Source: Saccostrea echinata (lineage: Eukaryota). Taken from it: 64,000 bases of DNA. Below the pieces are notes generated by a model, which was not told where the DNA came from, did not search any database, and saw only the letters and a list, made by a program, of their open reading frames with translations. The stretch is from contig NW_026889750.1 in the NCBI RefSeq assembly GCF_033153115.1, positions 868,001 through 932,000 of the forward strand, read 5' to 3'. Position 1 is the first letter of the stretch, and every line of letters begins with the position of its first letter. Positions 53,347 through 55,955 of the stretch are shown here, one piece after another. Made by a program: the position numbers and the translations under genes.

Positions 53347-54473
53347 TAGTCATCTTCTACAAACTTTTCTCATTTTCTACTTCGTCTTTAGGAGGTCAGA
53401 GTCAAACAACTGCACAAGTATTCTTTTGTAAATTAGTAGGCTTGGAATAATTGGAATTCGTTAAACTGAAAAGTGATTTACCCCAATCCCTCCAAAAAAA
53501 AAAGTTACCACCACAGTTACATGTATGCAATCCGTATTTACGTAGGAACAGGACTGTAAAACATTTCTTGATTTGAGGGAAAAGAGGTTAGTATAAATTA
53601 TAAATACAGTTTCATTATTTCCGTTTCCAGTTTCAATCATAGGAATCCTACATTATGGTTTTCTTCTTTGTGCTGCCAAATATATGAATTTAATACAACA
53701 AATCAAACATAAGTAAGTTTGATGATGTCATACAAATGAACGTGTTGTGCATTGTGCATCCTGACATTGGGCACCAAACAATACTAAATATTTAAACAGA
53801 GAACTGTAAGATAGGCTATGTCTGTACATTTTTCACACGTGCCTAGGTGAAGTAAAACTGTCATTGAAAAACACGAAGTGGATGTTATTTCAATCCATAA
53901 TTTTCTTGAAACTTACTTTTAAAGTTTAAAATATCTGTTGCTCTCAAACTTCTTACGTCGCTGTAAATAAAATTTATTTTAAAAGTGAACAAAAATATAA
54001 TTGTAACAAGCATATAGATGATCTAGATGAATCTACAGACGATGACAAAAGCGTGTCTGTGTTTTTTTTAACCTTTAATTATTGAAAGGTGGTATCTCTA
54101 AAGTACTAAAAGCAAGTAGAAAATTTTAATGCAGTATTTCCATATTTGAAAAAATAAACTGCAGAATAAACAGATACACGTATAATCAGCATGTATTGCA
54201 TGCATCGGGTTCGGAAAACAGATAAAAAAGCAATTTGTTGATGGCGCCAAAAACTTGATTTTCAATATTCAGCTCAGGTCAGTATTTAAAAATAATTCTA
54301 AACTATCGTTGACGGTTCAGTATCATTTAAACAGTAGATAGATTTATTTTGCCAGTTTGGTAGCTCTGTTCACAGTATACTATGAAATTATTTTGAAAAT
54401 TGAAGTGGAAAGCCATTGCATAAAATGATAGGCCTATGTATAAATTTACCCTTATATAGATCAATATCCTGGG

Positions 54474-54743
54474 ATGACAATGAGGAGTCAAACATTACCA
54501 AATCTTCTTCTGATGGTTTTTCTTGTTTTGCTGTTCCCTATGCATTCTAAGACATGTGTGACGGATTATTCCACGCCATACGGCTGTGCGGACATTGATG
54601 GGAAGTGTAAGGCGGCGGCGGGGGAATGTTACATGGTCCCCACCCTTTATTACGGGGACCAGTGCTGTTGCTCCACTGACGAGTCATGTCGATGGATTGA
54701 ACCCGACTCCAGTCTTGTAAAGAAAACGGATGATGAACTATAG
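54474..54743 (+). CDS. Small secreted cysteine-rich peptide (89 aa, 8 Cys), family unassigned
   Basis: Hydrophobic signal-like N-terminus and a GC-richer ORF in AT-rich DNA. Splice acceptor at 54458-54459 just before the ATG, candidate donor GTAAGT at 53713, TATAAA boxes near 53592-53605, ATTAAA at about 54825. Confidence 0.75.
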   Translation: MTMRSQTLPNLLLMVFLVLLFPMHSKTCVTDYSTPYGCADIDGKCKAAAGECYMVPTLYYGDQCCCSTDESCRWIEPDSSLVKKTDDEL

Positions 54744-55955
54744 ACATGGTTTTATTTAAAGTGCAAAACTGTGCATTTAAACCAGAGAGATGGATTCATT
54801 ATGTGGAATTCTTTTTCTTGTATTATTAAAAACATAACGATATAGTATGATTTCTAGCAGTGATGATATCATCTCAAAATTTTCTAGATATCTGAATACT
54901 CTGGGTCTGTTTTACAAAAGTACTTACGACTAAGACATAAAATATGCGGCCAATTTTTTGTCTTCTTTAAATGAATTTGTATTCAGTGCAGATTTAGAAA
55001 ACAATATTTTTAGACATACGCAACCATGTGCATTTTCAGAGTTATCACCATTAAGTAAGTCAGTATGTCCAGAAACATTGCGTCTCTGGTAATGTCCAAT
55101 CTGGCGTACGTTCTGTATGTCAGATTAAAAACAAACTAATACTTGGGCTTCGTCGATGCTTCTTTTATAAAATGGGATCCTGTTTATTATTTGATGTAGA
55201 TTAATTTGAAATCTATGGAAATTGTTATTTAATTCTGAGTTAGTAAAGCTTATTTAGCACGAAATTGTACAGTATAATGTCTGAATATGTAGGTGATCTC
55301 GGTTGTCTTGGTTCTTTGCTAGAGAACAAATATCCGCATGTAACAATCCAAGTTAGATGTGGAATAGAATAGAAAAGCATTTTCCAAATCAGGGCCCAAA
55401 TATACAAATAAGCATAAATTTATAGCATATAGCCTATATTATTAATGATACAGTAATAGACAAGATAGTGAAGCGTAATTCTTCCAGTTAGATTTTAAGA
55501 ACATTGGTGGCATTGCCTTCCCACATTTTTTTTTTTTATTAAAATATATAATTTGGTGTTTAATATGACTATTTCTGCACATTTAATTAATACTTAATGT
55601 TAAACATGTGCATTATTCTTCTTAATAATTCAATATATACATTCTGAGCACATAACATATGCCCGATACATCAACAAGAGCTGATGCTAAAGAAATGTAT
55701 TAAACAGAAATCCACTGCTGTCTTATGTGCAATAAACAGATACATGATATATGGAGAAAAGTATTATATGTTGGTAAATGAATTTAAAATTTGATGGTAT
55801 GATATAATGTTTTCTGTTTTTCTTTTTTAAAATAATAATAGTAATATATTGATATTTACTATGAAGAAATATCTTATAATATTATTTTCACAGAACTCGA
55901 TGAAAACGGTTCAATAATTTAAATTAATACATTTCATACTACATATACTAAGGCC

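Follow-up and report, generated by a model that had tools for sequence, protein, structure and literature searches.

The 64,000-nucleotide stretch of DNA analysed here (the window; Saccostrea echinata, contig NW_026889750.1, positions 868,001 to 932,000 of the forward strand, numbered from its first letter) carries a single-exon open reading frame (ORF) that appears to encode an undescribed, small, acidic, eight-cysteine secretory protein, apparently restricted to oysters. The coding region and its parts are as follows:

54474–54743, + strand: coding sequence in one exon, 89 amino acids plus stop (ORF; contigs from five of six sequencing runs; orthologs)
54474–54548, + strand: predicted signal peptide, residues 1–25 (hydropathy, ortholog alignment, a model helix at 7–20)
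54555–54689, + strand: eight-cysteine core, residues 28–72, C-x9-C-x6-C-x6-C-x11-CCC-x5-C (spacing identical in three lineages)
54690–54740, + strand: conserved 17-residue tail, W-I-x-P-D-S-S-L-V, then a variable spacer and a terminal DDEL (lineage alignment)

A first-pass annotation made from the letters alone had described the cysteine spacing, a GEC motif and a KKTDDEL end, and all of these were recovered in the 89-residue ORF, which has an additional in-frame ATG at 54480. The cysteines lie at residues 28, 38, 45, 52, 64, 65, 66, and 72 (spacing 9, 6, 6, 11, 0, 0, 5) and GEC at residues 50–52; within the C-terminal tail, KK is encoded at 54720–54725 and DDEL at 54729–54740. The signal-like N-terminus described earlier was also seen by prediction, residues 11–22 being hydrophobic with a best nine-residue Kyte-Doolittle window of 3.57. 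Alignment with the ortholog motif S-V-K-T / L/F-S-C suggests that the signal is cleaved before K26, which would give a mature chain of 64 residues, and the eight cysteines of the core presumably form four disulfides. The earlier count of 12 D/E against 5 K/R holds for a mature chain starting at T27, but a start at K26 raises the basic residues to 6. The mature peptide has an isoelectric point (pI) of ~4.2 (4.05–4.21 across three lineages); the core alone has 7 D/E against 2 K/R and a pI of 4.05.

Two genome searches found one copy of the gene, which is a lower bound; a tblastn match at 11284–11367 (E 5.1) was rejected as a paralog since a stop follows it and the cysteine core is absent. A phmmer search of 1.84 billion representatives returned one match (E 1.4e-23, 55% identity), and the ORF is therefore not a product of chance. 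This match is a cluster of 39 members that includes UniRef100_K1Q3X3 (Magallana gigas, uncharacterised, 84 amino acids), and one M. gigas sequence of the cluster was found on 547 contigs. A profile search (two matches among 238 candidates) added a second cluster of four unnamed sequences, and both clusters are likely from oysters. With the 15 of 39 M. gigas cluster members that are listed, and the window's own sequence, the comparison covers 20 sequences in three lineages. A single-sequence homolog search gave one candidate and none at E<=1. A profile search for fused forms in longer proteins found 0 of 7,023 candidates at E<=10, which is weak evidence against such forms. No published mention of K1Q3X3 or of five family sequence motifs was found in the literature outside subscription journals. 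K1Q3X3 was likewise unmatched in the supplements of four bivalve proteomics papers, three of which do not hold it and at least two of which use no such accessions; since most use other identifiers, this result is uninformative on tissue.

Across the three lineages, the eight cysteines and their spacing are invariant, as is G-D-Q-C-C-C-S, and W-I-x-P-D-S-S-L-V is invariant in the alignment, with V for I in one listed M. gigas member. Conservation is higher in the tail than in the core: 8–10 of the first 10 tail residues are identical between lineages, vs. 20–25 of the 37 non-cysteine core residues. The spacer after PDSSLV has three lengths, and DEL is terminal throughout, in 20 of 20 listed sequences (INDEL in 14, YNDEL in 1, IDDEL in 4, and TDDEL in 1), so that the -4 residue is D in two lineages and N in one. 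KK occurs only in the window's sequence, and a dibasic site is found in the tails of 0 of the 19 listed ortholog sequences. K1Q3X3 itself has the same cysteine spacing, 28 of 45 identical core residues, the same tail motif and a terminal DEL; it differs in ending VEINDEL (N at -4, without KK) and in being more acidic than the window peptide. Orthologs in two clusters thus keep both the cysteine array and the tail, in keeping with the earlier proposal of an undescribed disulfide-rich secretory family, for which we found no family, fold or literature match. Allelic variation is concentrated in the signal peptide, which sets the gene apart from bivalve defence peptides. The contig from sequencing run X5, a divergent haplotype, has 12 differences (one unlisted), among them nine listed coding substitutions and a 3-nt deletion. 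All four listed signal-peptide substitutions are nonsynonymous, whereas four of the five listed in the mature region are synonymous, all four in the cysteine core, and the fifth changes the first mature residue (Fisher p 0.048 for the split).

To look for known relatives, we searched family and fold databases. No Pfam family matched any of eight members; AtDEF-like scored below threshold in one of the eight (E 0.11, 13.3 bits vs. a cut-off of 25). The cysteine pattern was also compared with EGF-like, hevein, three-finger and VWC patterns, none of which had a Pfam match. A sequence search of the PDB gave no match, and a profile search gave one below threshold, a scorpion CS-alpha-beta protein at E 1. 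AlphaFold2, run with an eight-sequence alignment, gave a mean predicted local distance difference test score (pLDDT) of 64.6, with 70–81 over residues 31–70 and <50 in the tail; the model has four short strands, a short four-residue helix at 44–47 and the signal helix at 7–20. Without an alignment the model was unusable (pLDDT 44). Searching with a model of this modest mean pLDDT, as the first-pass annotation had suggested, Foldseek found no relative at E<=0.001 in the PDB or BFVD; sub-threshold rows included CS-alpha-beta proteins at E 2.8–9, several of them scorpion peptides, and a heregulin EGF domain at E 3.2. The CS-alpha-beta rows reflect a GxC-x11-CxC hairpin, but there is no C-x3-C motif. 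A VIA wide search with the same model found 0 of 48,161 at Z>=2, which is not evidence of a new fold, and the best ESM Atlas match (0.76) was below noise; the mature part had no usable match there.

Transcription was assessed in six sequencing runs from two studies, presumed to be RNA, as non-templated poly(A) and spliced joints argue. Features outside the coding sequence, including those of the untranslated regions (UTRs), are as follows:

54253–54277, + strand: 3' end of a 5' UTR exon (record 28 of run X5)
54278–54459, + strand: likely 5' UTR intron, GT..AG, 182 nt, in place of 53713–54459 (one contig)
54825–54842, + strand: proximal poly(A) signal ATTAAA (54825–54830) with cleavage after 54842 (non-templated A8 in run X1)
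54744–55802, + strand: long 3' UTR form to ~55790–55800 (an X2 record to 55788, an X5 record to 55802; the contigs leave the true ends unfixed)
53590–53712, + strand: TATA box and exon 1 of the first-pass annotation, inside the first intron of a Tctex-1 gene (unsupported, no junction from 53712)
53917–53940, - strand: covered part of the 5' exon of a neighbouring Tctex-1-family gene that faces the peptide gene head-to-head (X2 joint 51908–53917, CT..AC)

The ORF is covered by contigs in five of the six runs. An X1 contig spanning 54515–54842 has no differences from the genome and ends with eight non-templated A residues after 54842, 12 nt past the ATTAAA that had been noted earlier, where the genomic letters are not A-rich. 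The peptide gene is transcribed and polyadenylated at 54842. A short dispersed repeat piece at 54903–54941, in the long 3' UTR, is common to many other transcripts (loose contig ends).

At the 5' side, the first-pass annotation had placed a TATA box and exon 1 at 53590–53712 and an intron at 53713–54459, and the contigs changed this model. Its acceptor (54459/54460) is in use, as seen in the one contig that crosses it, X5 record 28. The last 23 letters of this contig upstream of the acceptor match 54253–54275 with one mismatch (22/23), the sole place in the window with <=4 mismatches, and there directly precede AG|GTCAGT; therefore, the 5' UTR intron is most likely 54278–54459, with the joint at 54277/54460 rather than 53712/54460. 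The rest of the 891 upstream letters of record 28 found no placement on 48000–58000, and a 30-letter loose end from X5 had no whole match in the window (<=3 mismatches) or genome (<=2), so that ~860 further upstream letters are without explanation. Neither a junction from 53712 nor RNA cover over 53590–53712 was found in the contigs of the six runs, though contigs cannot prove absence, and a Tctex-1 exon lies inside the proposed intron. Since the GTAAGT donor at 53713 is good (7/8, equal to the donor at 54278), the unsupported exon may nevertheless serve as an alternative 5' exon. The likely 5' UTR exon also holds a five-codon upstream ORF (ATG 54241, stop 54256–54258), which splicing brings into the frame of the main ORF.

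The corrected gene model leaves the promoter region interleaved head-to-head with the Tctex-1-family (dynein light chain) gene, a spliced gene of ~168 amino acids at 49237–53940 on the - strand, whose last coding exon matches PF03645 (E 9e-15). An acceptor-like TTTACAG near 53960 suggests that the Tctex-1 5' end may lie nearer still to the peptide gene or overlap it. Contig depth is unfit for ranking genes or tissues; depths for the Tctex-1 and peptide genes covary (X1, 2057/1386; X2, 391/224; X3, 51/11; X5, 579/242) with library size uncontrolled, which hints weakly that they share a promoter. Short dispersed repeat pieces found in many other transcripts lie at 50199–50500 and 51040–51370. 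A further spliced gene (47264–~49400, + strand), which presumably resembles HD-type phosphohydrolases, overlaps the Tctex-1 3' end tail-to-tail with its 3' part; its joint at 48061–48317 reads as a GC..AG intron and its exon 1 has no Pfam match. At 20422–21328 (+ strand) lies a remnant of a reverse transcriptase of long interspersed nuclear element (LINE) type over two frames (PF00078, E 4e-9).

The conserved terminal DEL raised the question of retrieval to the endoplasmic reticulum (ER), one of two readings of the tail in the first-pass annotation. KDEL-receptor ligands need their motif at a free C-terminus, and human receptors bind DDEL with a dissociation constant of 14.9 uM, 60-fold weaker than HDEL; DDEL reporters were mostly secreted, the gatekeepers D50 and E117 excluding DDEL, and no endogenous DDEL ER resident is reported as verified in human cells (PMC8248988). 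An N at -4 (NDEL) equalled K in a reporter assay in HeLa cells (PMC2140024). In the host genome, we found one KDEL-receptor locus, which aligns to chicken KDELR2 30–118 without gaps and keeps D50, S54 and E117, with W120 read from the next exon. By analogy with these mammalian assays, the host receptor is predicted to reject DDEL and accept NDEL. Among four families of host ER residents searched, three tails were readable (MANF-like, REEL; ERp29, KDEL; calreticulin, KDEL, taken from an unspliced downstream frame), and none is DDEL. One contig carries calreticulin twice, in nearly identical copies of opposite orientation (G000:C34 3.545 Mb and 6.948 Mb), as a duplication or an assembly haplotig.

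The other reading, an acidic propeptide cut at KK, was not sustained, since the ortholog tails have no dibasic site, KK itself being absent from 19 of 19 listed orthologs, and the tail is more conserved than the core. A DEL end would arise by chance at ~3e-4 (with generic residue frequencies), so that a terminal DEL kept across three spacer lengths is expected neither of chance nor of a disposable propeptide. The gating reading is plausible, though weaker than first suggested: a predicted signal peptide (hydrophobic N-terminus, three lineages) and a terminal xDEL, as in KDEL-receptor cargo, are present in the family, but D50/E117 receptors like the host's bind DDEL poorly. Strict ER residence is doubtful for DDEL forms because of the gatekeepers of the host receptor and the lack of DDEL among residents' tails. 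By the mammalian assays, a weak, leaky retrieval is probably what best fits a locked DEL together with these gatekeepers.

Therefore, we tentatively favor, as the leading account though far from a secure one, an uncut four-disulfide mini-protein that is weakly recycled by the KDEL receptor and then secreted as a non-lytic binder. In this account, the peptide would enter the ER, presumably with cleavage of its signal; its tail would stay uncut; the terminal DEL would engage the KDEL receptor weakly, slowing secretion rather than blocking it; and the secreted peptide would act outside the cell as a binding protein, either a ligand or an inhibitor. Being acidic, conserved and encoded by one copy, the peptide does not resemble a lytic antimicrobial, and for the same reasons the immune or toxin-like effector proposed earlier is disfavored. 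Several points weigh against the recycling account. The -4 residue is D in two of three lineages, and the D50, S54 and E117 kept by the host receptor exclude DDEL in human cells; the readable resident tails are REEL, KDEL and KDEL. DEL could be conserved simply as a piece of a conserved tail. The PDB profile, Foldseek (PDB and BFVD) and VIA searches found no target or fold relative, and the conservation argument draws on three lineages, 15 of the 39 sequences in the M. gigas cluster, and an X5 contig with one of 12 differences unlisted.

The nearest rival is quite possible: constitutive secretion of an acidic disulfide peptide (a mucus, plasma or shell-matrix binder, or a protease inhibitor) in which DEL, conserved as part of a functional tail, has no role at the KDEL receptor. 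Conservation of the entire tail fits it, as does the expectation that a host-type D50/E117 receptor would reject DDEL, and bivalve precedents exist in the acidic cysteine-rich I84 inhibitors (pI 4.98–6.11; PMC9198434) and the acidic C-terminus of accripin11 (PMC9808598). However, DEL stays exactly terminal despite spacer insertions, the NDEL of M. gigas works efficiently as a signal in HeLa cells (PMC2140024), the array differs from that of I84, and the model is unlike the helical bundle of accripin11. A bolder version of recycling, which we consider doubtful, is a defensin-sized KDEL-receptor cargo held early in the secretory pathway by a D/N-tuned DEL and freed on a fall in ER calcium or in receptor capacity; if true, the peptide would be a stress-gated (heat, osmotic, infection) extracellular signal with a disulfide array matching no family or fold found here.

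Still less probable is true residence in the ER lumen (as a calcium or metal buffer, or a folding helper), with retention by an oyster KDEL receptor tolerant of D/N-DEL. The signal peptide predicted together with a terminal xDEL in 20 of 20 listed sequences, the single copy, the conserved mature region, the strong acidity and the many M. gigas contigs would suit it. Core ER helpers are usually conserved well beyond one family, and the window peptide matches only at the oyster level; moreover, the host receptor keeps vertebrate-type gatekeepers, and the MANF-like protein, ERp29 and calreticulin of the host carry a basic -4 residue. Finally, a defensin-like antimicrobial freed by cutting an acidic propeptide at KK is very improbable: the GxC...CxC resembles a CS-alpha-beta gamma-core, with the sub-threshold AtDEF-like, scorpion and Foldseek rows given above, and an anionic proregion is found at the C-terminus of mussel MGD2, but KK is missing from every listed ortholog, a cut there removes just 5–7 residues and leaves a pI of 4.1, there is no C-x3-C helix motif, the peptide is single-copy with a conserved mature region, and oyster defensins are cationic (pI 8.5–8.7; PMC3390580).

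With this peptide, a much-researched aquaculture group gains a small disulfide scaffold that is conserved, well expressed and unnamed. The cysteine-rich peptides of that group are for the most part cationic and hypervariable, the opposite of the window peptide. Set against known gatekeepers, the naturally occurring D/N exchange at the -4 position of the conserved DEL tail offers a simple test of whether selection tunes secretion by weak KDEL-like signals.

The first-pass annotation did not recognise the cysteine spacing as that of any bivalve defensin, macin, big defensin or CRP-I peptide, and the analysis supports this view, the window peptide differing from each in cysteine array, charge or profile. 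CS-alpha-beta defensins bridge a C-x3-C on a helix to a C-x-C on a strand. Like Cg-Def and the MGD peptides, the window peptide has a predicted signal peptide directly before an eight-cysteine peptide, GxC and CxC-like motifs and, as in MGD2, an acidic C-terminal extension; unlike them, it has CCC and no C-x3-C, is acidic (pI 4.05–4.21) and single-copy, and has a conserved tail and no Pfam or fold match above threshold. Macin spacing includes C-x3-C and C-x-C. The window peptide is spaced otherwise, has no Pfam match in eight members, and its core model lacks two helices, whereas macins have 6, 8 or 12 cysteines in a beta-alpha-alpha-beta-beta fold (PMC10608444). Big defensins are described as 87–94 residues with a hydrophobic N-terminal domain and a six-cysteine beta-defensin domain; the 64-residue mature window peptide has eight cysteines, no such N-terminal domain and no Pfam match.

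Mussel CRP-I peptides are also short, secreted, cysteine-rich bivalve peptides described without an established function. They have a six-cysteine array, C(X3-6)C(X1-7)CC(X3-4)C(X3-5)C, which follows an N-terminal propeptide cleaved at KR/RR, as well as many genes, a conserved signal and a hypervariable mature peptide (PMC10138031). The window peptide, with eight cysteines including CCC, no N-terminal propeptide, one copy and a conserved mature region, shows the reverse pattern of variation. The molluscan I84 inhibitors (cvSI/scSI) are likewise small, acidic and cysteine-rich with a signal peptide, but have 12 cysteines (CX5-8CX4-5CX7-9CX4CTC...CXC), three exons and tandem arrays (PMC9198434), in place of eight cysteines with CCC, one coding exon and one copy. 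Accripin11 is a shell protein with a helical-bundle fold (PMC9808598), unlike the present model. Exodosis, the release of weakly retained KDEL-receptor cargo such as MANF on ER calcium loss, is described in a paper in whose text and seven readable supplements DDEL and NDEL were not found (PMC8276033). The window peptide is far smaller than MANF-type cargo, and no sequence or fold relation between them was found; nonetheless, it shares with that cargo a predicted signal peptide, presumed disulfides and a non-canonical C-terminal xxEL, and such proteins may be a model for its gated release.
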